Shown here: positions 1 through 13,193 of the stretch, piece by piece
Numbering within the stretch: position 1 is the first letter of the stretch
How the letters are laid out: every line of letters starts with the position of its first letter
NCBI GenBank assembly: GCA_963827755.1
Contig: CAWHCQ010000052.1
Coordinates: 1 to 17,405 of the forward strand
Reading direction: 5' to 3'
Origin: an uncultured Gammaproteobacteria bacterium
Lineage (GTDB): Bacteria; Pseudomonadota; Gammaproteobacteria; UBA9214
DNA: 17,405 nucleotides
The notes under the pieces: generated by a model
The model's input: only the letters and a program-made list of their open reading frames with translations
Told to the model about the DNA's origin: nothing
Database searches by the model: none
Made by a program: the position numbers and the translations under genes

Positions 1-467
1 ACGTTGACCCGCGCCACGACGTGCTCGGCGTCATCGGCGAGCATTACCACGGCGCGGTCTCATTTGTTATACATGCCTTTGGTGGTTTTGCACCTTATTT
101 GACAATCGCCGGAGTGGCGACGGCCTGGTACATGACGCTGAAGAACCCGGGTTTTGCGGATGACATGCAAAAGCGTTTCAGCGGCCTCTACCGAGTGCTG
201 GTCAACAAGTACTACGCCGATGACTTCAACGAGGCCGTGTTTGCCGGCGGGGCACGCGGCGTCGGCCAGCTGTGCTGGAAGATCGGCGACGTGCTGATCA
301 TCGACGGGTTGATTGTCAACGGCAGTGCGAAGGTCGTCGGCTGGGTGTCCAGCGTCGCGCGTCACCTGCAGACCGGCTACCTGTATCACTATGCCTTCAG
401 CATGATCGTCGGCCTGTTGCTGATGCTGTTCTGGTTCGTGTTCATGGCACCGGGAGCAGGCGCATGA
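1..467 (+). CDS. nuoL: NADH-quinone oxidoreductase subunit L, 3' part (5'-truncated by window)
   Basis: Frame open from position 3. Has the NuoL C-terminal motifs NKYYADDFNE, GDVLIIDGLIVNG and LQTGYLYHYAFSM. The stop overlaps the nuoM start (ATGA, 464-467). Confidence 0.95.
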   Translation, partial: VDPRHDVLGVIGEHYHGAVSFVIHAFGGFAPYLTIAGVATAWYMTLKNPGFADDMQKRFSGLYRVLVNKYYADDFNEAVFAGGARGVGQLCWKIGDVLIIDGLIVNGSAKVVGWVSSVARHLQTGYLYHYAFSMIVGLLLMLFWFVFMAPGAGA

Positions 468-2038
468 CCGACTTGCCACTGCTCAGTTTACTGATCTGGC
501 TGCCGATTGTCGGCGGCGTGGCGCTGCTGGTGATGGATACTCTCGGCAACACGGCATGCCGCCAGACGGCCTTCGTCGTCGCGATGGCCACCTTCCTGCT
601 GAGCCTGCTGCTGTACACGAACTTCGATATGGCGACGGCGGCCATGCAGTACCAGGAAAAGGTGCCGTGGATCGCGGCGTTCAGTGCCAATTACCATCTT
701 GGTGTCGATGGCATCTCGATGCCGCTGATCATCCTCACCAGCTTTACCACGGTGCTGGTGGTGCTGGCCGGCTGGCAGGTGATCAAGGACCGTACGGCAC
801 AGTACATGGCGTCCTTCCTGATCATGGAAGGGCTGATGATCGGCGTGTTTTCCGCGCTCGATGCCGTGCTGTTCTATGTCTTCTGGGAGGCGATGCTGGT
901 GCCGATGTTCCTCATCATCGGCATCTGGGGCGGTCCGAACCGGGTCTATGCCACCATCAAGTTTTTCCTCTATACCTTCCTCGGCTCGGTGTTCATGCTG
1001 GTCGCGCTGATCTACATGTACCTGAAGGCCGGCAGTTTCAGCATTCTTGATTTCCACGTGCTGCCGCTGAACATGACCGAACAGGTGCTGATCTTTATCG
1101 CCTTCCTGATGGCCTTTGCGGTGAAGGTGCCGATGTGGCCGGTACACACCTGGCTGCCGGATGCGCACGTCGAGGCGCCGACCGGCGGTTCCGTGGTGCT
1201 TGCCGCCATCATGCTGAAGATCGGCGGTTACGGCTTCCTGCGTTTCAGCCTGCCGATCACGCCGGACGCCAGCCATGAACTCGACTGGCTGATTATCCTC
1301 ATGTCGCTGGTGGCGGTGGTCTACATCGGCTTCGTGGCGATGGTGCAGGAAGACATGAAGAAGCTGATTGCCTATTCATCGATTGCGCACATGGGCTTCG
1401 TCACGCTGGGCATCTTCCTGGTGTTTACCCTGCTGGACAACAACGGCTCATTGCAGGGCGCCAGCATGGGCATGGAGGGCGGCATGGTGCAGATGATCTC
1501 GCACGGCTTTATTTCCGGTGCGCTGTTCCTCTGCGTCGGCGTGCTCTATGACCGCATGCACTCGCGCCAGATCAGCGATTACGGCGGTGTCGTCAATACC
1601 ATGCCGGTGTTCGCCGCGTTCATGGTGTTCTTTGCGATGGCCAATGCCGGCCTGCCGGGCACCTCTGCCTTCGTCGGCGAGTTCATGGTGATCCTCGCCA
1701 GCTTCAAGGCGAACTTCTGGTTTGCCTTCCTCGCGGCCACCACCCTGATTCTCGGCGCGGCCTACAGCCTGTGGATGGTGAAGCGCGTGGTGTTCGGCGA
1801 GGTCGCCAACGACAACGTGAAACAACTGGAAGACGTCAACCTGCGCGAGTTTGTCATCCTCGCAAGCCTGGTGGCCGTGGTGCTGTTCTTCGGCCTGTTG
1901 CCGGGGCCGCTGGTCGAGGTGATGCATGCCAGTGTCGATCAACTGCTGGCCCATGTGTCTGTCTCCAAGCTGCCGATCGGAGACCGGCCTGGCACTGATG
2001 CAAGGCATGCAGCCCTGAGACTAACGGAACGATTATGA
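464..2038 (+). CDS. nuoM: NADH-quinone oxidoreductase subunit M
   Basis: Starts [14 protein letters not shown] at ATG 464 after GGAG. Motifs [57 protein letters not shown]. The true stop may be 2016-2018 if one base near 1980 is an error. Confidence 0.96.
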
Positions 2039-3471
2039 CCATTCCCCTGACTGACTTCGCACCTTTGGCCACGGAGCTGTTCGTGCTCACAATGGCCTGC
2101 ATCATCCTGGTCGTGGAGGCCTTCTTCGGCGAGCAGCGCCGTCAGCTGAGTTATGTGCTGGCGCAGCTGACCCTGCTGGTCGCGGCCCTGATCAGCTGGA
2201 ACATGCTCGATGCGGGCAGCGTGGTGGTGCTGGGCGGCAGCTTCGTGCATGACCCGATGGCGGCACTGTTAAAGACCAGTGTTTTCCTGGTGACGGTCGG
2301 TGCCTTCGTCTATGCGCGCGGCTACCAGACCGGCAAGGGCAGCCTGCGCGGTGAGTTCTACGTGCTCGGCCTGTTTGCCGTGCTCGGCATGATGGTGATG
2401 ATCTCGGCGCACAGCCTGCTGACCATCTACCTCGGGCTGGAGCTGCTGTCGCTGTCGCTCTATGCGATGGTCGCCTTCGACCGCAATTCGTCGCCGGCCA
2501 GCGAGGCGGCGATGAAGTACTTCGTGCTCGGCGCGCTGGCCTCCGGCATGCTGCTCTACGGCATGTCCATGCTCTACGGCGCCACCGGCAGCCTCGACCT
2601 TGCCGAGATCGCGGCCGCCATTTCCGTCATGCAGGACAGCGGCCTGATCCTGATCTTCGCGCTGTGTTTCATCGTCGTCGGGCTGGCCTTCAAGTTCGGC
2701 GCGGTGCCGTTTCACATGTGGGTGCCGGATGTCTACCACGGCGCGCCGACCGCCGTGACCCTGTTTATCGGCAGCGCCCCGAAGATCGCGGCCTTCGCCA
2801 TGGCGATGCGCCTGCTGGCGGAATCGCTGGGCGGCCTGATGCCCGACTGGCAGGGGATGCTGGTGATCCTCGCGGTGCTCTCGCTGGCGCTCGGCAATGT
2901 CATCGCCATTGCACAGACCAACCTGAAACGCATGCTCGCCTATTCGACCATCTCCCATGTCGGCTTCCTGCTGCTGGGCATTCTTGCGGGCACGCAGGAA
3001 GGTTATTCGGCGTCCATGTTCTATGCCATTACCTATGCGCTGATGGCCATCGGCGCCTTCGGCATGATTATCCTGCTCAGCCGCCAGGGCTATGAGGCCG
3101 ATAAGCTGGATGACTTCAAGGGGCTGAATGAACGCAGCCCCTGGTTTGCCTTCATGATGCTGATGCTGATGTTCTCCATGGCCGGTGTGCCGCCAACCGT
3201 CGGTTTCTACGCCAAGCTGTCGGTGCTGCAGGCCGTGATCCACGTCGACATGCTGTGGCTGGCCCTGGTCGCGGTGGTCTTCTCGGTGATCGGCGCGTTC
3301 TACTACATTCGCATGGTCAAGCTGATGTACTTCGACAAACCCGAATCCGAACAGCCGCTGGTCATCAATACCGATTTGCAGGTTGCCATGAGTATCAACG
3401 GGCTGGCCGTGCTGTTGCTGGGGTTGTTTCCGGGTGGCCTGCTGACGCTCTGCCTGAACGTGTTGTCCTGA
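2035..3471 (+). CDS. nuoN: NADH-quinone oxidoreductase subunit N
   Basis: Motifs [60 protein letters not shown]. Follows nuoM. Confidence 0.97.
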
Positions 3472-3478
3472 TAAAGGT

Positions 3479-3515
3479 TTCCGGGTTTGCCGGAAGCGCG
3501 GAGTTCATCCGCGCT
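3479..3515. repeat. Two adjacent short hairpins just after nuoN (the second REP-like)
   Basis: TTCCGG(3479-84)/CCGGAA(3490-95), and AGCGCGGA-GTTCA-TCCGCGCT (3495-3515, perfect 8-bp stem). Confidence 0.5.
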
Positions 3516-3525
3516 GAATCACGTC

Positions 3526-3825
3526 TTGTTGGAGCGCCTTGCAGGCGCGGTTTTATTGTGATGCGGGCTCTCGCGCCCGCGCGGCGAGATACTTTTCTTT
3601 GCTTCGCCAAAGAAAAGTATCCAAAAGAAAGGCGACCCGGAGGCTGCAGCCCGCTACTCATTTTCATGAGTATTCGGGTTCCCTGCGCTTCTCGCGAAAA
3701 CCGGCGCATGCGCAACTCGCAATCTCGCTGCGCTCGAAAGCTCAAACAGGGCGCATGCTTCATCCGGTTTTCACTGCGATGCTCGGCTGCGCCTACGGGA
3801 GGGGTAGATCAAACCCCCATACTCA
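3526..3825 (-). repeat. ~300-bp structured repeat element, copy 1 (left arm of large palindrome)
   Basis: Aligns end to end with the reverse complement of 3827-4136. Outer ~80 nt and inner ~33 nt are nearly identical; the internal stems have diverged with compensation. Strand inferred from GNA loops and G-T wobble. Confidence 0.9.
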
Positions 3826-3826
3826 C

Positions 3827-4136
3827 TGAGTATGGGGGTTGATCTACCCCTCCCGTAGCACTCACCGAGTACCGCAGCCAATCCGGGGAATAGCCGCGCA
3901 CCCTGTCTGAGCTTTCGAGCGCAGCGAGATTGCGAGTTGTGCGCGGCCCCGGATTGGCGAGGAACGCAGGGGACCGCGCGGCGAAGCCGCCTTGCTGTAC
4001 TTGCCTAAGCGGTGAGTGCTCCGGGGTGCCCTTCTCTTTGGGTACTTTCTCTTGTGGCGAAGCAAAGAAAGTATCTCGCCGCGCGGGCGCGAGAGCCCGC
4101 ATACAATAAAACCGCGCCTGCAAGGCGCTCCAACAA
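3827..4136 (+). repeat. ~310-bp structured repeat element, copy 2 (right arm)
   Basis: Inverted copy of 3526-3825. Nested stems 3857-67/4010-20, 3877-88/3947-58 and 3894-3901/3939-46. Confidence 0.9.
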
Positions 4137-4143
4137 AGAAATC

Positions 4144-4225
4144 GGCGGAGCAAAGAAAAGTACCTCGCCGGCGGGCGCGAAAGCCCGCATCAAATAAAAC
4201 CAGCGCCTGCAAGGCGCAACAAAAG
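4144..4225 (+). repeat. Partial third copy (3' ~80 nt) of the element, in tandem with copy 2
   Basis: GGCGGAGCAAAGAAAAGTACCTCGCCGGCGGGCGCGAAAGCCCGCATCAAATAAAACCAGCGCCTGCAAGGCGC resembles 4056-4138. Confidence 0.85.
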
Positions 4226-4363
4226 TCACACATGCGCCTGCACACGCAAGGGCGATTAGCCCGGGACTTCCGCCCCTGCGGACCCGTAACCGTGCCACGC
4301 GGCTGGCCATCTGCCTCAAAACGAGAGCGTTTCCGTAAAAATCAGCCTTTTGGGGCTGAGGGC

Positions 4364-4400
4364 TTGAAAATAAGCAGTGCAATCGGCTACACTCCTCGGC
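4364..4400 (+). promoter_or_regulatory. Sigma70-type promoter for tRNA-fMet/rimP operon with GC-rich discriminator
   Basis: TTGAAA (4364-69), 18-bp spacer, TACACT (4388-93), then CCTCGGCC, just upstream of the tRNA. Confidence 0.65.
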
Positions 4401-4406
4401 CGTTGA

Positions 4407-4483
<77 letters not shown>

Positions 4484-4640: not shown

Positions 4641-5099
4641 GTGAGGCAGGATCCCTTGAAGATTGGTGAGCTGCTGGAGCCGGGAATTCGCTCGCTGGGT
4701 TACGAGCTTGTCGGCGTGGAATACCGGAGGGGCGGCCCGGGTGGCGATCTGTTGCGTGTCTACATCGACAAGGAAGACGGGATCTCGGCGGATGACTGCC
4801 AGAAGGTAAGTTACCAGGTCAGCGGTGTGCTCGATGTCGAGGATCCGATCACGGGGCACTACACCCTGGAGATCTCGTCACCCGGGCTGGACCGCCTGTT
4901 GTTCAAGCGGGAAGACTTTGAACGATTTGCCGGGCAGCAGGTGAAACTGCGCGCTATCTACCCGATTGAAGGGCGGCGCAAGTTCAAGGGACGCTTGCTC
5001 GGGCTGCGGGATGCGAATGTCGTCATCGAGCAGGATGGCGAGGAACTCAGCCTGCCGATTGACCAGGTTGAACAGGCGCGCCTGGTGCCGGAATACTGA
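4641..5099 (+). CDS. rimP: Ribosome maturation factor RimP
   Basis: GTG start after GGAG. Motifs [35 protein letters not shown]. Precedes nusA. Confidence 0.96.
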
Positions 5100-5124
5100 A
5101 TGCGGTATTTGGAGGTTTGCGAGA

Positions 5125-6687
5125 ATGGACAGTAAAGAGATATTGATGGTCGTCGATGCGGTGTCGAATGAAAAAGGCATCGACAAGGAGATCATCTTTG
5201 AAGCCATTGAGGTTGCATTGGCGACGGCCACCCGGAAAAGCCACGGGGGAGAGATCGATGCGCGCGTCGCAATCAATCGTGACACCGGCGAATACGAGAC
5301 CTTTCGCCGCTGGCAGGTGATTGACGACAGTCTCGAGCCGGAACCTGTGGCGGACGCGGACGCAGACGCGGAATCGGACGAGGAAGGACCACTGGTTTTC
5401 GAGCACCCCGAACGCCAGATTACGCTGGCCGCCGCGCAGCTTGACGATCCCGATATACAGCATGGCGATTTCATCGAGGAACCCATAGAGTCGGTTGCCT
5501 TTGGCCGCATCGGCGCACAGACCGCGAAGCAGGTGATCGTCCAGAAAGTGCGCGAGGCCGAACGTGCCATGGTCGTCGAGGCCTACAAGGACCGCGTCGG
5601 GGAGCTGGTTACCGGTATCGTCAAGCGTGTCGAGCGTGGCAACGTTTATCTCGATCTCGGCATGAACGCCGAGGCGATCATCCTGCGTGAGGAAATGATT
5701 CCGCGCGAGGCCGTGCGTCCGGGAGACCGCCTGCGCGGTTATTTGCGCGATGTCAGTGCCGAGCAGCGTGGACCACAACTGTTTGTCAGTCGCGTCGCGC
5801 CCGATTTTTTGCTTGAGTTGTTCAAGCTCGAGGTGCCTGAAGTCGGGCAGGACCTGATCGACATCCTGGCGGCCGCACGTGATCCGGGCCTGCGTGCCAA
5901 GATTGCGGTAAAGAGCAACGACCCGCGCATCGACCCGGTCGGCGCCTGTGTCGGTATGCGTGGTTCACGTGTACAGACGGTGTCCACGGAATTGTCGGGT
6001 GAGCGTGTCGATATCATCCTCTGGGATGAAAACCCTGCCCAGTTTGTTATCAATGCGATGTCGCCTGCAGAGGTTTCCTCGATCGTCGTCGATGAAGATT
6101 CGCATACCATGGATATTGCCGTGGTCGAGGAACAGTTGTCGCAGGCCATCGGCCGTGCCGGGCAGAACGTGCGCCTTGCCAGCCAGTTGACCGGCTGGAC
6201 GCTGAATGTAATGGATGAGGTGCAGGCCGAGGAAAAGGGTGAGGCAGAGGCGGCAGAGTTGCAGAAGCTGTTTACCGAGCAACTCGACGTGGATACCGAG
6301 ATTGCGGCCATCCTGGTACAGGAGGGTTATTCCAGTATCGAAGAAATTATCTACGTACCGAATAGCGAACTGCTTGCTATCGAGGAGTTTGACGAAGAAA
6401 TGGTCGAGGAGTTGCGTGGCCGGGCGCGCGATGTGCTGTTGACGCAGGCGATCATGAAAGAAGAGAAAATCGGCGATAATGAACCGGCTGCTGATCTGCT
6501 GGAAATGGAAGGTATGGACGAAGGTCTCGCCTACGAGCTTGCCGGCCGCGGCATTATTACCATGGAAGACCTCGCGGAACAGGCGGTTGATGAGCTGATA
6601 GATATCGAGGGGATGGACGAGGCACGGGCCGGGTCCCTGATTATGACAGCCAGGGCGCCCTGGTTTGCGGAAGAAGCGGTTGAGTAA
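5125..6687 (+). CDS. nusA: Transcription termination/antitermination factor NusA
   Basis: ATG 5125 after GGAGG. Motifs [68 protein letters not shown], acidic C-terminal repeats, ARAPWF. Confidence 0.98.
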
Positions 6688-6700
6688 TGGAGTGGATGTA

Positions 6701-9262
6701 ATGTCAAACGTCACGGTAAAACAATTTGCTGAAGTCGTCGGGGTTCCCCCGAACCGTTTGCTTGTGCAACTGGGTGAAGCCGGTCTTGAAATAAGTGATG
6801 AGAACGCCACTATTTCGGACAAGGAGAAGACCCAGCTGCTGGACTTTCTTCGTCAAAGCCATGGCAAGCGCGGAGCACTGTCAACCGGTGGCGCCAGCAA
6901 GGTTACCCTGAAGCGAAAAACCCAGAGCGAATTGCGTGCCACGGTGCCAGCCGGTCGCGGACCTGCCGGTCGCGGTGCCGTTCGTGCCAGGCCTGAAACC
7001 AAGACCGTCAGGGTCGAGGTTCGCAAGAAACGCACCTATGTAAAGCGTGCGGATTTGATGGCCGAAGAGCAGGAGCGCGTCAACAAGGAGCTGGAAGAAC
7101 AGCAGGCCAAGCGCGCTGCCGAAGAAGCCGAAGAGGCAGCGGCACGCAAGTTGCGGGAAGATGCCAAAAAGCAGGAGCAGGAAGAAAAGGCCGCAGAGGA
7201 GTCAAAGCTGCAGGCGGAGCGCGAAAGCAGGCAGCAGGCAGCCGAGGAGGCGCGCCTGCAGTCAATCGCGGCGTCAGAGGCCAAGCAGCAGGCGGAAACG
7301 GAAGATGCCCGCCAGAAGAAACCTGCCGATGCTGATCGCAAGTCGCGCAAGGCCGGTGCCGGAAAGAGCACCAAGTATGGCCGCCAGGAATTGCACGTTG
7401 CAGCAGGCAAGGGCGGGCGCCGCAGGAAAAAATCGAAGGCAACACGACGCGTCAGCATCGAGAGTACCGGTGAACACGGTTTTGCGTTGCCGACTGAATC
7501 AGTCGTGCACGAGGTCGAGATACCGGAAAATATCCAGGTCTCCGAGCTGGCCCGGAAGATGTCCATCAAGGCTGCTGAAATTATCAAGGTACTGATGCAG
7601 CTGGGTGTGATGGCCACGATCAACCAGGTACTGGACCAGGATACGGCAACACTGGTTGTCGAGGAAATGGGACATGTCGCCAAACCGGTTGATGAGAATG
7701 CGCTCGAGGCGGAACTGATACAACAGGCTGCCGAGGTCGAGGGTGACAGGTTGCCGCGACCTCCGGTAGTCACGATCATGGGCCATGTCGATCACGGCAA
7801 GACCTCGCTGCTGGATTATATCCGCCGTACCACGGTGGCCGATGGTGAAGCTGGCGGTATTACCCAGCATATCGGCGCCTACCACGTAGAAACATCAAAG
7901 GGGATGATCAGTTTTCTCGATACACCCGGACATGCCGCCTTTACGGCCATGCGCTCGCGCGGTGCCGGCGTGACCGACATTGTCATCCTGGTGGTTGCCG
8001 CCGATGACGGCGTCAAGCCACAGACCAAGGAAGCTGTTCAGCATGCCCGGGCGGCCGATGTTCCGCTGCTGATTGCCGTCAACAAGATGGACAAGGCGGG
8101 TGCCGATATCGAAAAGGTCAAGACCGAACTGGCGGCGCTCGAGGTGATCCCGGAAGACTGGGGGGGTGACACGATGTTCGTGCCGGTCTCGGCGAAAACC
8201 GGTGACGGCGTCGATGCATTACTCGATGCCGTGTTGCTGCAGGCGGAAGTCCTGGAACTGACCGCGGTATACGATTGTCCTGCGACCGGTATCGTGGTGG
8301 AGTCCAGCCTCGACAAGGGGCGTGGTGCCGTGGCCACGGTGCTGGTACAAAACGGTATACTCAAAAAAGGTGACCTGCTGCTGACCGGTGAAGAGTATGG
8401 CCGGGTGCGCGCCATGTTTGATGAGAGCGGCAAGCAAATCAGCGAGGCCGGTCCATCCATGCCTGCACTGGTACTGGGCTTGTCTTCTGTACCGAATGCC
8501 GGCGATGACGTGATCGTCGTTGCCAATGAGCGCAAGGCCCGTGAACTGGCGGAGCAGCGCAAGGAGAAGGCACGCGCCAGGCGGCTTGAATCCCAGCAAC
8601 AGGCACGCCTCGAGGATGTTTTCTCGGCAGCCGCGGAAGGCAGGGTGCCAACAGTCAATATCGTGCTGAAGGCGGATGTACAGGGCAGTGCGGAAGCATT
8701 GAGTAACGCCCTGGTCAACCTGACGGCTGAACAGCCCGACGTCAAGGTCAAGGTGATTTCCAGTGGTGTCGGCGGCATCAACGAGTCCGACGCAAGCCTG
8801 GCAATCGCTTCGAATGCAATCATTATCGGCTTTAATGTGCGTGCCGATTCCTCCTCGAAGCAGATGATCGATGAGAACAATGTTGACCTCAGGTATTACA
8901 GCGTCATTTATAATGCCATCGATGACGTCAAGGCCGCCGCCAGCGGCATGATGGCGCCGGAAACCCGGGAAGACATCATCGGCCTGGCCGAGGTCAAGGA
9001 AGTCTTTCTGTCACGCAAGCTGGGTGATATCGCCGGCTGTATTGTCGTCGACGGGGTGGTGCGCCGTAATTCGCCGATCCGCGTGCTGCGTGACAATGTC
9101 GTGGTCTACGAAGGCGAACTCGAATCCCTGCGGCGCTTCAAGGATGACGTCAACGAGGTCAAGTCCGGCACCGAGTGTGGTATCGGGGTGAAGAATTACA
9201 GCGTCAGTGCCGGTGACCAGATCGAGGTATTTGAACGCGTCCAGGTGGAACGCTCCCTGTAG
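6701..9262 (+). CDS. infB: Translation initiation factor IF-2
   Basis: ATG 6701 after GGAG. GTPase motifs [38 protein letters not shown], plus KADVQGS and the C-terminal ECGIG. Confidence 0.98.
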
Positions 9263-9282
9263 CACTACAGGGGACTGTCCCC
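9255..9282. repeat. Two overlapping short palindromes at the infB stop
   Basis: CCCTGTAG-CA-CTACAGGG (9255-72) and GGGGAC-T-GTCCCC (9270-82). Confidence 0.55.
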
Positions 9283-9358
9283 CTTATCGCGCTTCCGGTA
9301 TCCATTCCCGTATGCAATTGTTTTGCGCCAAGCAGGTCTGCTTCCGGATTGCGCCCTG

Positions 9359-9733
9359 ATGCCGAAAGAGTTTCCAAGGACGCGCCGTGTCGGCGAGCAA
9401 ATCCAGCGTGAACTGGCGGCATTGATACATGATGAGCTGAAGGACCCGAGGCTGGGCATGGTCAGCATCTCCTCGGTACATGTATCACGCGACCTGGGCC
9501 ATGCAAAAGTTCATGTTTCGGTACTCGGTAATGCCGACCAGACCAGGGAATCCCTCGAAGTGTTGAATCATGCTGCCGGTTTCCTGCGTCACAAGCTTGG
9601 CAAGCTCATGCACATACGGGTGATACCTGCGCTGCGCTTCTATCACGACAGGTCACTGGAAGAGGGCGCACGGCTGGGCGCGCTGATTAACGAGGCGATC
9701 GCCAGTGACAAGGGAAATACTGATGATGAATAG
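9359..9733 (+). CDS. rbfA: 30S ribosome-binding factor A
   Basis: MPKEFPRTRRVGEQIQRELA, KDPRLG, VSRDLGHAKV, PALRFYHDRSLEEG. Start chosen at ATG 9359 by family N-terminus. Confidence 0.96.
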   Translation: MPKEFPRTRRVGEQIQRELAALIHDELKDPRLGMVSISSVHVSRDLGHAKVHVSVLGNADQTRESLEVLNHAAGFLRHKLGKLMHIRVIPALRFYHDRSLEEGARLGALINEAIASDKGNTDDE

Positions 9734-9762
9734 CTCTTTCTCAAACAGGCCTGTGTTCGACC

Positions 9763-10686
9763 ATGAGTAGACGCCAGCGAAACAGTCACCTGCGGCCCGT
9801 CAACGGCATACTGTTGCTCGACAAGCCTGCCGGGGTGACTTCCAATGCCGCGCTGCAGACGGTGAAGAAGTTATACCGCGCGCGCAAGGCCGGGCATACC
9901 GGCAGCCTTGATCCGCTTGCCACCGGTTTGCTGCCGATCTGCTTTGGCGAGGCGACCAAGATTTCGGGCTTCCTGCTGGATGCCGACAAGGACTACCTGG
10001 TCACCTGCAAGCTGGGTGAGCGCACCAACACCGGCGATGCAGAAGGCGAGGTGCTTGAGCAGCGCCCGGTAAAAGGTGTCACCGAGAAGCGCGTGCGCCA
10101 GGCCATGCAGGAATTCATCGGCGATATCGAGCAGATTCCACCGATGTACTCGGCCCTGAAACACAAGGGTGAGCGCCTCTACAAGCTGGCGCGCCAGGGT
10201 GTTGAAGTCGAACGCGAGCCCCGCACGGTGACGATTTTCGGGATGGAGATGCTGGATTTCGGCCTGCCCGAGGCAACCTTCCGGGTGCATTGCTCGAAGG
10301 GGACCTACGTGCGTACCCTGATAGAGGACATGGGCGAGATTCTAGGCTGTGGCGCGCATGTGATCGGTCTGCGCCGCCTGGGGGTTGGCCCCTTTGACGA
10401 TAGCGGCATGATTGAACTGGGCACCTTGCAGGCGCTGGCCGCGGAGGGGGTGGCCGAGCTGGACAAGCTGTTGCTGCCGCTGGAACGCGGCCTGGCCCAC
10501 TGGCCGGATGTGCGCCTCAGCGGGGACGCGGCTTTTTACCTGCGCCAGGGCCAGCCGGTGCTGGTGCCGAATGCGCCGACCGACGGCTGGGTGCGTATCT
10601 ACGAGGGCGAATCGCGTTTTATGGGCATGGGCGAGATCCTCGACGATGGCCGGGTGGCCCCGCGCCGGCTGATGACGGCCCGCTAG
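9763..10686 (+). CDS. truB: tRNA pseudouridine(55) synthase TruB
   Basis: GILLLDKP, KAGHTGSLDPLATGLL (catalytic Asp), QIPPMYSALK, CSKGTYVRTL, C-terminal PUA-like region. Confidence 0.98.
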   Translation: MSRRQRNSHLRPVNGILLLDKPAGVTSNAALQTVKKLYRARKAGHTGSLDPLATGLLPICFGEATKISGFLLDADKDYLVTCKLGERTNTGDAEGEVLEQRPVKGVTEKRVRQAMQEFIGDIEQIPPMYSALKHKGERLYKLARQGVEVEREPRTVTIFGMEMLDFGLPEATFRVHCSKGTYVRTLIEDMGEILGCGAHVIGLRRLGVGPFDDSGMIELGTLQALAAEGVAELDKLLLPLERGLAHWPDVRLSGDAAFYLRQGQPVLVPNAPTDGWVRIYEGESRFMGMGEILDDGRVAPRRLMTAR

Positions 10687-10711
10687 TTGCGGCTATCCCC
10701 TGCAGGAGAGC

Positions 10712-10740
10712 TTGTGGCGAGCCTGAAGCACGGTTAAAAT
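10712..10740 (+). promoter_or_regulatory. Probable rpsO-pnp sigma70 promoter
   Basis: TTGTGG (10712-17), 17-bp spacer, TAAAAT (10735-40). SD CAGGAG lies before the rpsO ATG. Confidence 0.55.
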
Positions 10741-10782
10741 ACCGGGCTCAACAGATTTTACAAGTAAATTCAGGAGTTTTTC

Positions 10783-11052
10783 ATGGCTTTGAATGCCGAA
10801 CAAAAAAGCGAGATTGTAAAGACCCATCAGCGCGCAGCGGATGATACCGGGTCGCCGGAAGTGCAGGTTGCCCTGCTGACCGGGAACATTGCAGCGCTGA
10901 CCGAACACTTTGCAGCACACAAGGCTGATCACCATTCCCGAAGAGGACTCCTGCGCATGGTCAACGCGCGCCGCAAGCTGCTCGATTACCTGAAGGGTAA
11001 AGACAGCACGCGCTACCAGGACCTGATCACCAAGCTTGGCCTGCGCCGTTAA
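10783..11052 (+). CDS. rpsO: 30S ribosomal protein S15
   Basis: 89 aa. [33 protein letters not shown]. Confidence 0.99.
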
Positions 11053-11108
11053 TTAATCACTTCTTGCCGGCTTAACCCGCCACCTTTTTCAGACGAGGAA
11101 ATACACCC

Positions 11109-13193
11109 GTGAGTGCAATCAAGAAATCCTTTCAGTACGGTGACCAGACGGTCACGATCGAGACCGGGGAAATTGCCCGCCAGTGTAGTGCAGTCATCGT
11201 CAGCATCGGTGATACCAAGGTGCTTGCCACCGTGGTGGGTGACAAGCATCCGATGGTAGGGCGTGACTTTTTCCCGATGACAGTTGATTACCAGGAAAAG
11301 GGTTATGCAGCCGGTCAGATACCCGGTAACTTTTTCCGCCGTGAAGGACGCCCGAGCGAACCCGAGACACTCATGTGCCGCCTGATCGACCGGCCGCTTC
11401 GTCCGCTGTTTCCGAAAGGCTTCACGCACGAAGTGCAGGTCATCCTCACGGTGATCTCCTACGACCCGCAGATCCAGCCCGATATCGCCGCATTGATCGG
11501 CGCCTCCGCCGCCATGTCCATTTCCGGACTGCCGTTTGCAGGACCGGTAGGCGCGGCCCGCGTCGGCTATATCGACGGCAACTACGTGCTCAACCCGACG
11601 ACCGAGCAGCTGGAAGTGTCGAAACTCGACCTGGTCGTTGCCGGTACCGAGAGTGCCGTGCTGATGGTGGAGTCCGAGGCGAAGGAGTTATCCGAAGAAG
11701 TCATGCTGGGTTCCGTACTGTTCGGACACGAGCAGCAGCAGGTCGTTATCAAGGCCATCAGGGAACTGGCTGCCGAGGTGAACACACCGCCAATGGCGTG
11801 GACAGCACCGCAGGAGAACACATCACTGGCCGACGCCGTCGAGAAGGAAGGCGCCGAGGCCATTGCAGCCGCGTACAAGGTGGCCGACAAGCAGGACCGC
11901 TATACCCTGTTGAGCAAGGTGCGCGAAGAGATCGTCGACAAGGTGGCCGATGATTCAGACGGCGGCTTCTCGCGTGATGAAGTCAAGGGCGCGACTGGCA
12001 AGCTCGAGAAGAAAACCGTGCGCAGCCGCATCCTCTCCGGTGAGGCCCGCATCGACGGACGCGATACCAGCACCGTGCGTCCCATCACCATTCGCATGGG
12101 CGTGTTGCCGCGTGCACATGGTTCCGCACTGTTTACCCGCGGCGAGACCCAGGCACTGGTAGTGACCACGCTGGGTACCGAGCGTGATGCGCAGTTGATC
12201 GACGCGCTCTCAGGCACGACCAAGGAACAGTTCATGCTGCACTACAATTTCCCTCCGTACTGTGTCGGTGAAACCGGCCGCGTCGGTGGCACCAAGCGCC
12301 GCGAAGTCGGCCACGGCAAGCTCGCCAAGCGCGGCGTTGCCGCCGTGATGCCGCCGAAGGACAGCTTTCCCTACACCATTCGCATTGTCTCGGAAATCAC
12401 CGAGTCCAACGGCTCCAGCTCCATGGCCAGCGTCTGCGGCAGCAGCCTGTCGATGATGGATGCCGGTGTGCCGGTCACCGGCGCCGTTGCCGGTGTGGCC
12501 ATGGGCCTCATCAAGGAAGGCGACAGCTATGCCGTGCTCACCGATATCCTCGGTGACGAGGACCACCTCGGCGACATGGATTTCAAGGTGGCCGGTACCG
12601 GAAACGGCGTGACCGCACTGCAGATGGATATCAAGATCCAGGGTATCACCGGCGAGATCATGGAAAAGGCCCTTGCCCAGGCGAACCAGGGCCGCATGCA
12701 TATCCTCAGTGAAATGTCCCGCGCCATCAACGCGCCGCGTGAAGACGTGTCCGATTACGCGCCGCGTTACATCACCATAAAGATCAATCCCGACAAGATC
12801 CGCGATGTCATCGGCAAGGGCGGTGCAACCATCCGTGCCATCCAGGATGAGACCGGTGCCAATATCGATATCGATGATACCGGCACTATCAAGATTTCAT
12901 CCGTCGACCTCGACGCCGGTAACGAGGCGCGCCGCCGCATCGAACAGATCACCGCCGATGTCGAAGTCGGTACCATCTACGACGGCAAGGTCGCCAAGCT
13001 GATGGATTTCGGCGCCTTCGTCACCATCCTGCCGGGCAAGGACGGCCTGGTGCACATCTCGCAGATCTGCGAAGAGCGTGTACAGAATGTCAGCGACAAG
13101 CTGTCCGAGGGCGACCTGGTCAAGGTCAAGGTGCTCGAGGTCGACAAGCAGGGCCGCATCCGCCTGAGCATGAAGGCTGTCAACGAGGGCTAG
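11109..13193 (+). CDS. pnp: Polyribonucleotide nucleotidyltransferase (PNPase)
   Basis: GTG start after [61 protein letters not shown] (VIGKGG) and S1 domains. Confidence 0.98.

Follow-up and report, generated by a model that had tools for sequence, protein, structure and literature searches.

What is the element that fills an intergenic region of a bacterial genome with two inverted copies of one fold, whose stems differ almost wholly in sequence, and what might such a fold be for? This question is raised by positions 3526-4222 of a 17,405-nt stretch of DNA (hereafter, the window; contig CAWHCQ010000052.1 of assembly GCA_963827755.1) from an uncultured gammaproteobacterium of the UBA9214 lineage, for which a preliminary description had proposed two diverged copies of an unnamed, structured, non-coding element. 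We found that the window contains a head-to-head pair, along with a duplicated end fragment, of a modular element that is widespread in beta- and gamma-proteobacteria; the inverted pair is real and, far from being private to this genome, is one instance of a very widespread family. The pair is a conserved, non-coding element that is constrained in its fold and has no enzyme nearby. Its most distinctive feature is a covarying pseudoknot with a probable triple helix, of which we found no earlier notice: in the literature searched, with subscription journals outside the coverage, there was no account of the element in its entirety, of its pseudoknot or of the mirror tract introduced below, and the literal sequence of the element turned up in papers only as primer coincidences.

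The two units are ~300 nt long each and are arranged head-to-head, with a partial copy beside the second:

3526..3826, + strand: unit 1 (copy 1), full length, from the inverted repeat with unit 2, alignment and fold (z = -4.05)
3826..4136, - strand: unit 2 (copy 2), full length, inverted, from repeat search, alignment and fold (z = -4.43)
4140..4222, - strand: third copy, partial, outer module alone, from repeat search and alignment
about 3794..3857, no strand: central palindrome joining both units, with one 1-nt indel, from repeat search

The outermost 34 nt of the pair are 100% complementary (3526-59/4103-36), the ~70 nt inward of them are 76% complementary, and the inverted repeats of the apical parts reach 82%. 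Once reverse-complemented and aligned to copy 1, copy 2 is near-identical to it at the ends, in the apical 37 nt and over the last ~30 nt, and stems A, B and C are almost wholly different between the copies, each still being self-complementary. These three stems, as proposed in the preliminary description, were all recovered: stem A at 3641-51/3785-94 with one bulged T in copy 1 and, without any imperfection, at 3857-67/4010-20 in copy 2; stem B at 3696-3704/3764-72 and 3877-88/3947-58, respectively; and stem C at 3706-13/3751-58 and 3894-3901/3939-46. The apical 37 nt indeed show a single A/G difference between the copies, and the short helix with a central mismatch, which had been proposed as well, is real; its mismatch is T.T if copy 1 is read on the + strand and A.A if it is read on the complementary one. 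The partial copy of ~85 nt (4140-4222) includes the terminator hairpin, a second hairpin, and the 5' arm and loop of the A/T hairpin, and repeats the outer module of unit 2 in tandem (period, 88-89 nt); the preliminary description was without this third copy, the terminator-like outer hairpins, and the pseudoknot with its mirror tract (3588-3635).

From the outside in, and in the orientation of copy 1, a unit consists of the terminator hairpin, helix P0, the A/T hairpin, the purine tract, the loop-complementary bases, a compound hairpin of ~170 nt and a G-rich tail. In the window, these parts are located as follows:

3534..3558, + strand: inward-reading, terminator-like hairpin GCGCC-TTGCA-GGCGC (3534-3548) and T-run, directly after nuoN, from terminator scan
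4104..4128, - strand: terminator-like hairpin (4128-4114) and T-run of unit 2, from terminator scan
4193..4217, - strand: terminator-like hairpin (4217-4203) and T-run of the partial copy, from terminator scan
3563..3588, + strand: second GC hairpin (3563-68/3575-80), overlapping helix P0 (CTCGC 3570-74/GCGAG 3584-88), from sequence and P0 covariation
3588..3635, + strand: pseudoknot and candidate triple-helix module of unit 1, from covariation of helices S1 and S2 and the mirror rule
4024..4075, - strand: variant pseudoknot and candidate triple-helix module of unit 2, from purine arm AAGAGAAA and mirror tract AAAGAGAA
3636..3799, + strand: compound long hairpin of unit 1, from sequence, fold and helices 4-9 of the 33-unit consensus
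3852..4026, - strand: compound long hairpin of unit 2, the same architecture with other stem sequences, from sequence, fold and covariation

In all three terminator-like hairpins of the window, a GC-rich hairpin is followed by a T-run; seven terminator-like sites were found, compared to 1.8 +/- 1.3 in shuffles, and across the family such sites read inward in 58 of 139 units and outward in 9 of 139. Helix S1 in the pseudoknot module of unit 1 is that of the 14-bp A/T hairpin (3588-3601/3608-3621), the mirror tract AAAAGAAA follows at 3623-3630, and S2 is formed by the loop bases 3604-3607 and positions 3632-3635. In unit 2, the pyrimidine arm is short of one C, which leaves one bulged base; the same AAGAGAAA/AAAGAGAA variant is also present in L005 (loci with relatives are numbered with an L), there with a perfect helix. 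Unit 1 carries the exact 25-nt core of the module, and unit 2 a co-varied variant thereof. The long hairpin of unit 1 consists of a closing CCC/GGG, stem A, a side hairpin, the box CTGCGCTTCTCG, stem B, stem C, the apical part (3714-3750, AACTCGC ... GCTCAAACA) and the box CTGCGATGCTCGG. The window units are of the beta type, in which the boxes CTGCGNTNCTCG pair across a T.T mismatch and the apical part reads AACTCGC ... GCTCARACA.

Both copies fold exceptionally well, copy 1 at -124.6 kcal/mol and copy 2 at -145.1 kcal/mol, with 0 of 100 dinucleotide shuffles as good in either case. We aligned 33 units that share the apical motif of the window, namely, the two window units and 31 units from 24 other loci, picked from 36 found (L011, L065 and L118 were left out). 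In this MAFFT alignment, which was not fitted to a structure and from which the structure itself (the RNAalifold consensus with S2 as pseudoknot) was derived, 88.3% of the 1849 cells at paired positions are paired, compared to 75.5% in shuffles, and sliding the partner by 1-3 columns reduces pairing to 37-51% (at most 50.7%). Two-sided change is seen in 35 of the 57 pairs, including 4 of the 5 pairs of helix P0, and in 226 cells versus 75.9 in shuffles; none of 500 column shuffles reaches any of the five covariation measures. Thus, what is conserved is the fold and not the sequence, as had been proposed from the two copies, and the larger alignment abounds in compensatory change. The constant sequences are the apical AACTCGC and GCTCA.ACA, which are invariant in all 33 units. 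Next to the conserved T.T mismatch of the box helix, a T.G pair (columns 195/385 of alignment A2; window 3684/3786) is found in 25 of the 33 units, with T-A in 5, which points to a fixed non-canonical motif. There is no evidence for a free-standing form of the apical module: 14 of 52 apical motifs were flagged as lacking a nearby pseudoknot, and by eye all of these except L070 have one upstream, in a sample that was selected by motif.

Pairing between the A/T hairpin loop and the sequence immediately after the purine tract makes the module an H-type pseudoknot. At least five contiguous complementary bases form S2 in 50 of the 77 distinct combinations of loop and downstream sequence (143 units), compared to 3.5% of 5328 non-cognate combinations, and more than 12 different S2 sequences occur, such as TCGCC/GGCGA, TGGCC/GGCCA, TGCCC/GGGCA, GGTGC/GCACC and TCACC/GGTGA. 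The purine tract between the hairpin and S2 is neither a repeat nor the complement of the purine arm of the hairpin; it is the mirror image of that arm. The canonical purine arm AAAGAAAA is followed by the tract AAAAGAAA, and the other arm types, given as arm and then tract, are these:

AAAAGAAA, AAAGAAAA: 10 units
AAGAAAA, AAAAGAA: 2 units
AAGAGAAA, AAAGAGAA: L005 and window copy 2
AGAGAAA, AAAGAGA: L031
AAGAAA, AAAGAA: L065

All six asymmetric run-length classes (3,4; 4,3; 2,4; 2,1,3; 1,1,3; and 2,3) are reversed in the third tract, and in none of the six is the arm directly repeated. The five types other than the canonical one come from copies outside the exact search pattern, and symmetric arms, including the all-A or near all-A copies L016+, L017+, L017-, L057- and L116-, are uninformative. 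Deviations from the mirror rule amount to one position or a truncated arm in L010, L018, L037 and L059, and to one extra A in the tract of L013+. The mirror register runs straight on from S2 (alignment columns 100-124). This anatomy, its conservation and the three-way covariation are observed directly. A mirror relation has no Watson-Crick explanation and is what base triples would require, and a third strand that co-varies isomorphically with the purine strand, as it does here in six of six asymmetric classes, is what a triple helix would produce; the pseudoknot module, then, probably contains one. The chemistry would fit on either strand: A.A-T and G.G-C triples on the + strand of the unit or, on the opposite strand, U.A-U and C+.G-C triples formed by a U-rich tract parallel to the purine arm. 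By H-type geometry, which we reasoned through and did not compute, a path of the long loop through the major groove would be available to the strand opposite to the unit only. Given this path and a linker of 1-2 nt after a 14-bp helix, the opposite strand is favored, and a purine-motif DNA triplex on the + strand appears disfavored by the same linker.

How far does the family extend? The 25-nt core pattern, scanned against a collection of species-representative genomes, occurs in at least 122 loci, with 129 exact matches within 125 loci among the matches listed, on which the counts for the family rest. In a plasmid collection, nt 55-117 of copy 1, that is, the A/T-rich hairpin and ~25 nt after it, are the sole part with matches, at 84-94% identity in 18 records from Burkholderia, Ralstonia, Pasteurella, Aeromonas, Pseudoalteromonas and Chitinibacter. 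By record title, the hosts are Comamonadaceae (Polaromonas, Acidovorax, Hydrogenophaga, Rhodoferax, Ottowia and others), Burkholderia, Silvimonas, Lysobacterales, Aeromonas, Methylococcales, Pasteurellaceae, Porticoccaceae, Psychromonas, Halopseudomonas and two metagenome-assembled genomes of Desulfobulbales. Copies of the Comamonadaceae or Burkholderia type are also found in L008, L081, L086, L088 and L123, binned as Kapabacteria, Synechococcus, Asaia, Ruminococcus flavefaciens and Brevundimonas, respectively; the contigs were probably mis-binned, and the named organisms would then not be true hosts. In the 59 loci that are 1900 nt or longer, there are 31 single units, 22 head-to-head pairs, 3 back-to-back pairs and no tandem pairs, and pairs are under-counted because the scan misses degenerate partners. 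In the back-to-back pairs (L013, L026 and L042), the outer terminator modules adjoin, with 99-147 nt between hairpin starts. A chromosome-size Aeromonas record has the element in 4 places, so the copy number there is low.

The preliminary description had placed the enzyme that might move the element elsewhere, and the neighbors agree with this: the 124 open reading frames (ORFs) that flank the element in 62 related loci are unrelated housekeeping genes, with not a single transposase, integrase/recombinase, Rep or reverse transcriptase among them, and there is no mobile-element or enzyme gene within the 17-kb window. A coding role of the element itself was rejected, and its non-coding status upheld, on account of six ORFs (96-147 aa) across the region that match no Pfam and no NCBIfam family. 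On both strands of 3255-4459, spurious ORFs of 96-195 aa run through the element, and one of them (3255-3842) begins within nuoN, out of frame with that gene; ORFs of this sort probably give rise to false 'hypothetical protein' annotations.

The name of the family requires more qualification. At the gathering thresholds of Rfam 15, a tRNA (4407-4480) is the sole passing match in the window, and no family matches inside 3526-4222. With E up to 10, there are 16 weak matches in the region, all well under the cut-offs, and the only meaningful ones, both on the outer module, are to RF02421 (Bp1_Cand684_SIPHT, hereafter Bp1_Cand684; 18.6 bits at 3532-3598 on the - strand and 17.9 bits at 4061-4130 on the + strand, E = 0.2-0.3, cut-off 44) and to ncS025, a Burkholderia small RNA (sRNA) family (22.1 bits, cut-off 46). 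Matches of microRNA families to the central palindrome (40 bits, cut-off 67) are hairpin artefacts. RF02902 (AaHKsRNA22; cut-off 39.8 bits) has no match in the window even with E up to 10, and blastn against E. coli genomes and phage records found nothing similar. Scanned against 40 related loci, Rfam gave matches to the elements from RF02421 and RF02902 only: the former hits Burkholderia relatives with 45-123 bits (7 matches in 5 loci, namely, L003, L021 twice, L027, L069 and L078 twice), and the latter hits L065 alone, with 65 bits at 1035-1135 inside the long hairpin. Three riboswitch matches in L046 are located in its flanks. Hence 'unnamed' holds for the element in the window, which is below every Rfam threshold, and does not hold for the family at large, in which RF02421 covers the outer module of the Burkholderia members and RF02902 part of the Aggregatibacter member, both families being fragments of the element.

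Several observations bear on the strand that is used. RF02421 and RF02902 match the relatives on the strand opposite to the unit, and the AaHKsRNA sRNAs of Aggregatibacter were, according to the accessible text of the source, mapped strand-specifically by RNA-seq (PMC5909427). The inward terminators make transcription of the + strand of the unit unlikely. The gamma-type members have a strand-biased loop motif, ATCC(N)TG, with 71 occurrences on the unit strand compared to 6 of its reverse complement (129 units), 2-4 times per unit; on the unit-minus strand, it reads CA(N)GGAUG and is located in loops of 3-6-bp stems. We take this loop to be the CsrA/RsmE site consensus. The GGA loop motif is present at least once in 43 of the 129 units, at least twice in 21 and at least three times in 6; of the 47 units whose apical part bears AACTCGC, only 7 have it. 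The window type has GGA in an internal loop (25 of 33 units) and at a junction (9 of 33), with no GGA hairpin loops. Taken together, these indirect indications suggest that the acting molecule is an RNA, read from the strand that opposes the + strand of copy 1. Wobble pairs, which were tried as another indicator of the functional strand, gave no signal.

As for mobility, a non-autonomous mobile origin is compatible with the scatter over unrelated loci, with the head-to-head arrangement (in 22 or more of the 59 loci) and with the exchange of stem variants. In four pairs of loci, both flanks are shared, which shows that copies persist at orthologous sites across species; this persistence and the low copy number imply that mobility is slow or past. 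Overall, the interpretation given in the preliminary description is partly supported. In Polaromonas L037 and L045, with flanks that are ~85% identical, the boxes and the pseudoknot are near-identical, two stems have been replaced wholesale by a self-complementary variant that is also present at L023, and the center is unalignable; this looks like exchange between family copies or re-insertion and not like point-by-point compensation. Where compensatory evolution in situ was looked for between orthologs, the direct alignment showed whole-stem replacement instead. At 11 pairs examined, no direct repeat adjoins the inferred ends, which were set by local alignment, and in the better-aligned of these pairs (local score of at least 37), all in other genomes, the outer inverted repeats span 28-97 nt. 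Long perfect palindromes are unstable in bacteria, and this intolerance would explain why the paired arms differ in stem sequence.

The reading that we favor, tentatively and with somewhat less than even confidence, is that of a palindromic element, non-autonomous and low in copy number, with arms that work as structured RNA transcribed from the strand opposite to copy 1. The outer, inward-facing terminator would end nuoN transcription, and an RNA would be read outward from the center, opposite to the + strand of unit 1. U.A-U and C+.G-C triples would give this RNA a compact, stabilizing 3' module, and the ~170-nt hairpin, with its constant internal loops and freely varying stems, would display loops for protein binding. 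As DNA, the element would spread slowly as a non-autonomous palindrome, through a trans-acting activity or gene conversion. A bolder version of this reading, which we consider speculative and unlikely, is a horizontally spreading small-RNA cassette in which an ENE- or telomerase-like 3' triple helix protects against 3' exonucleases and the 5' hairpin is exchangeable; the gamma-type members would be mobile Csr/Rsm sponges, possibly including orphans such as RsmU of Xanthomonas, and the boxes of the window type would bind another partner.

A number of observations weigh against an RNA of this kind. Sigma-70-type promoters are scarce, with three promoter-like sites in 96 units and none in the center of the window, and no terminator follows the proposed RNA. 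G:T and A:C mismatches number 85 and 50, respectively, in alignment A2, where 25 of the G:T come from one conserved pair, and 36 and 52 in 127 single-sequence folds, a near-symmetry that is expected if pairing occurs at the DNA level or if both strands are in use. The AaHKsRNA22 match in L065 stops just before the pseudoknot; Bp1_Cand684 was, in the accessible text of its description, validated by reverse transcription PCR (RT-PCR) only (PMC3521395); and the case for the triple helix is one of covariation and geometry. Comparisons of orthologs, based on single-sequence minimum free energy structures, show 8-23 one-sided pair breaks against 0-4 kept double changes each. Moreover, the A/T helix of unit 2 is bulged, so copy 2 may be decaying.

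Many of the same facts are accommodated by the main rival of an acting RNA, to which we assign a clearly smaller share of belief, and which holds that the arms fold in single-stranded DNA (ssDNA), at forks or in transfer, and are sites of a trans-acting ssDNA transposase or recombinase that is encoded once elsewhere, as with REPIN and RAYT, the ends of IS200/IS605 or attC, so that any RNA would be a by-product. A linked enzyme is not expected under this explanation, in accord with the flanking ORFs, and the equal tolerance of G:T and A:C mismatches, the lack of a promoter and the absence of a visible target-site duplication at the 11 pairs examined speak in its favor; the head-to-head doublets are REPIN-like, the conservation of structure over sequence, with constant unpaired bases and a variable terminal hairpin, is attC-like, and purine- and pyrimidine-motif triplexes are both chemically possible in DNA. 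What makes us rank it lower is the low copy number in the Aeromonas record, the persistence of copies at orthologous sites and the detection of transcripts that overlap members, along with the loop motif of the gamma-type units, whose strand bias and repeated occurrence would be unusual for a nicking or recombination site, and the 1-2-nt linker, which would fit a third strand in the major groove only on the unit-minus strand.

The prominence of the outer hairpins, of which one immediately follows nuoN and the other two point inward from the right-hand side, the location of the element between two operons, the excess of inward- over outward-reading sites and a duplicated third fragment that is exactly the terminator module could all be taken to mean that the element is a domesticated terminator or insulator cassette that stops the flanking operons from both sides, the inner structure being a relic of a mobile past. 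This seems improbable to us since it leaves unexplained both the covariation of the inner helices, pseudoknot and mirror tract across distant taxa and the near-invariance of the apical and box sequences, and since only 58 of the 139 units score as terminators. Still more improbable is a decaying selfish palindrome, free of any fold-dependent function, in which compensatory changes stem from intrastrand template switching or hairpin gene conversion: the many one-sided, pair-breaking changes between orthologs, the defective A/T helix of unit 2 and the missing promoter would suit it, but template switching restores Watson-Crick pairs and cannot yield a mirror-image third tract, and the unpaired boxes and loops are constant over beta- and gamma-proteobacteria.

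The favored reading, that of a palindromic element acting through RNA, can be set against known systems. The Correia/NEMIS and ERIC repeats are intergenic, possess terminal inverted repeats and no ORF, can supply terminators and fold when transcribed; they are simple hairpins of 100-160 bp, Correia with a TA duplication, whereas the present element has a covarying pseudoknot at its ends and, in the 11 pairs examined, no visible target duplication. The terminal inverted repeats expected of DDE-type miniature inverted-repeat transposable elements are present, in the form of the fully complementary outer 34 nt, and a resemblance to the inverted repeats of the Tn3 family was dismissed as it is limited to the starting GGGG. 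The location is not that of integron attC sites: in the window, the element lies between nuoM-nuoN and tRNA-Met-rimP-nusA-infB, and elsewhere it is flanked by housekeeping genes. REPINs, in the accounts available, are mobile doublets of two inverted hairpin units, non-coding and long-persisting, with the RAYT enzyme encoded elsewhere; the REPs that compose them, as far as these accounts go, are 20-40 nt long and present in hundreds of copies, in contrast to the low-copy ~300-nt units with pseudoknot and compound hairpin described here, and neither the window nor the 124 flanking ORFs include a RAYT gene. BRE (Beta-proteobacterial repeat element), as characterized in the accessible text of Hot et al. 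2011 (PMC3110155), is a ~90-bp intergenic element of 69% G+C, transcribed as BprJ, that occurs alone in a 206-nt intergenic region, sometimes in tandem and in arrays of up to 8, in Bordetella, Polaromonas sp. JS666 (29 copies), Delftia, Acidovorax and Rhodoferax. By description, which is the basis of this comparison, the taxa overlap with those of the present family, and the 88-89-nt tandem duplication in the window is of similar kind.

Among sRNA annotations, the Bp1_Cand684 model matches the outer module of ~113 nt in Burkholderia members and leaves the pseudoknot and long hairpin uncovered. Its locus lies between pdhB and lpdA and is expressed by RT-PCR, and the accessible text of Khoo et al. 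2012 (PMC3521395) regards it as one individual trans-acting sRNA and not as a piece of a repeated palindrome; our L003 lies between aceF and lpdA. AaHKsRNA22 differs in being lineage-specific and in ending before the pseudoknot, and the main text of Oogai et al. 2017 (PMC5909427) has no mention of it. Csr/Rsm sponges, such as CsrB and RsmY/Z, are resembled by the gamma-type members, with 2-4 hairpins per unit displaying CA(N)GGAUG in the loop on the unit-minus strand, and differ from the window type, in which GGA lies in an internal loop and junction and not in loop hairpins; no Rfam Csr/Rsm family matched in the 40 scanned loci. RsmU of Xanthomonas, which is short, derived from a 3' untranslated region, GGA-bearing and without an Rfam relative according to the accessible part of PMC7694677, is similar to the gamma-type members by description. 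The literature, as far as it could be accessed, thus offers three leads, namely, BRE, RsmU and the 'intergenic dyad sequences' of Haemophilus.

For the putative triple helix, the closest parallels, in the accessible text of a review (PMC13541005), are the telomerase pseudoknots, including the pyrimidine-motif one of Kluyveromyces lactis, and the ENE/dENE of viruses and of plant and fungal transposons. They share an H-type pseudoknot or clamp with a U-rich strand in the major groove of an A-U helix and U.A-U triples with interspersed C+.G-C, and dENEs, like the present module on the favored reading, sit in transcripts of transposable elements. These systems are eukaryotic or viral, whereas here the triple helix is deduced from covariation; furthermore, the A-rich strand is internal in the DNA, and its being a 3' end is our guess. 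The bacterial triple helices in that text are those of riboswitches and a group II intron, and we found no bacterial repeat element in it.

If the mirror-tract covariation reflects a real triple helix, many proteobacterial genera would possess a triple-helix pseudoknot of 50 nt and simple sequence that belongs to neither riboswitches nor introns, and it would be a convenient natural system for the study of RNA or DNA triplexes in bacteria. The family joins the orphan sRNA annotations Bp1_Cand684 and AaHKsRNA22, and perhaps BRE/BprJ, as one element, explains one kind of spurious 'hypothetical protein' call made in GC-rich genomes, and exemplifies how an element without coding function can preserve an elaborate fold even as stem sequences are swapped between its copies. 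A global regulatory system would gain a mobile layer from this family should CsrA/RsmA bind to the loops of the gamma type; even otherwise, it is a well-defined repeat family of use for annotation and for the detection of mis-binned contigs.

Several relatives show peculiarities of their own. Two core motifs face each other at a distance of 4.4 kb in Aeromonas schubertii (L101/L102, NZ_CDDB01000106.1), and two in the same orientation are 5.5 kb apart in Aggregatibacter kilianii (L091/L092); these could be composite or autonomous forms. Single units in Silvimonas (L042, L046, L103, L118 and L011) and Lysobacter (L026 and L110) are followed by short tandem repeats of 5-12 nt, which differ from case to case, as in (CCCCAA)n, (GCCAAA)n, (CAACGG)n, (GGCAAG)n and (CAGCAA)n, as if the unit ended in a hypervariable slippage zone. 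A second short repeat, the dyad ATTCCCGCG-N-GCGGGAAT, recurs downstream of the Silvimonas units L011, L046, L103 and L118 and is presumably similar to the dRS3-type repeat of Neisseria. Runs of N, that is, masked stretches, lie inside the elements of L010 (~1055-1150) and L087.

In the window, the neighbors are nuoM-nuoN (272-3471) on one side and tRNA-Met (4407-4483) on the other, with rimP, nusA, infB, rbfA, truB and pnp 3' of the latter. A promoter-like site, TTGAAA-18-TACACT, precedes tRNA-Met (window 4364-4483), and rimP-nusA-infB-rbfA-truB ... pnp occupy 4641-13193. The layout tRNA-Met-rimP-nusA-infB is one that we take to resemble the metY-nusA-infB operon of E. coli.

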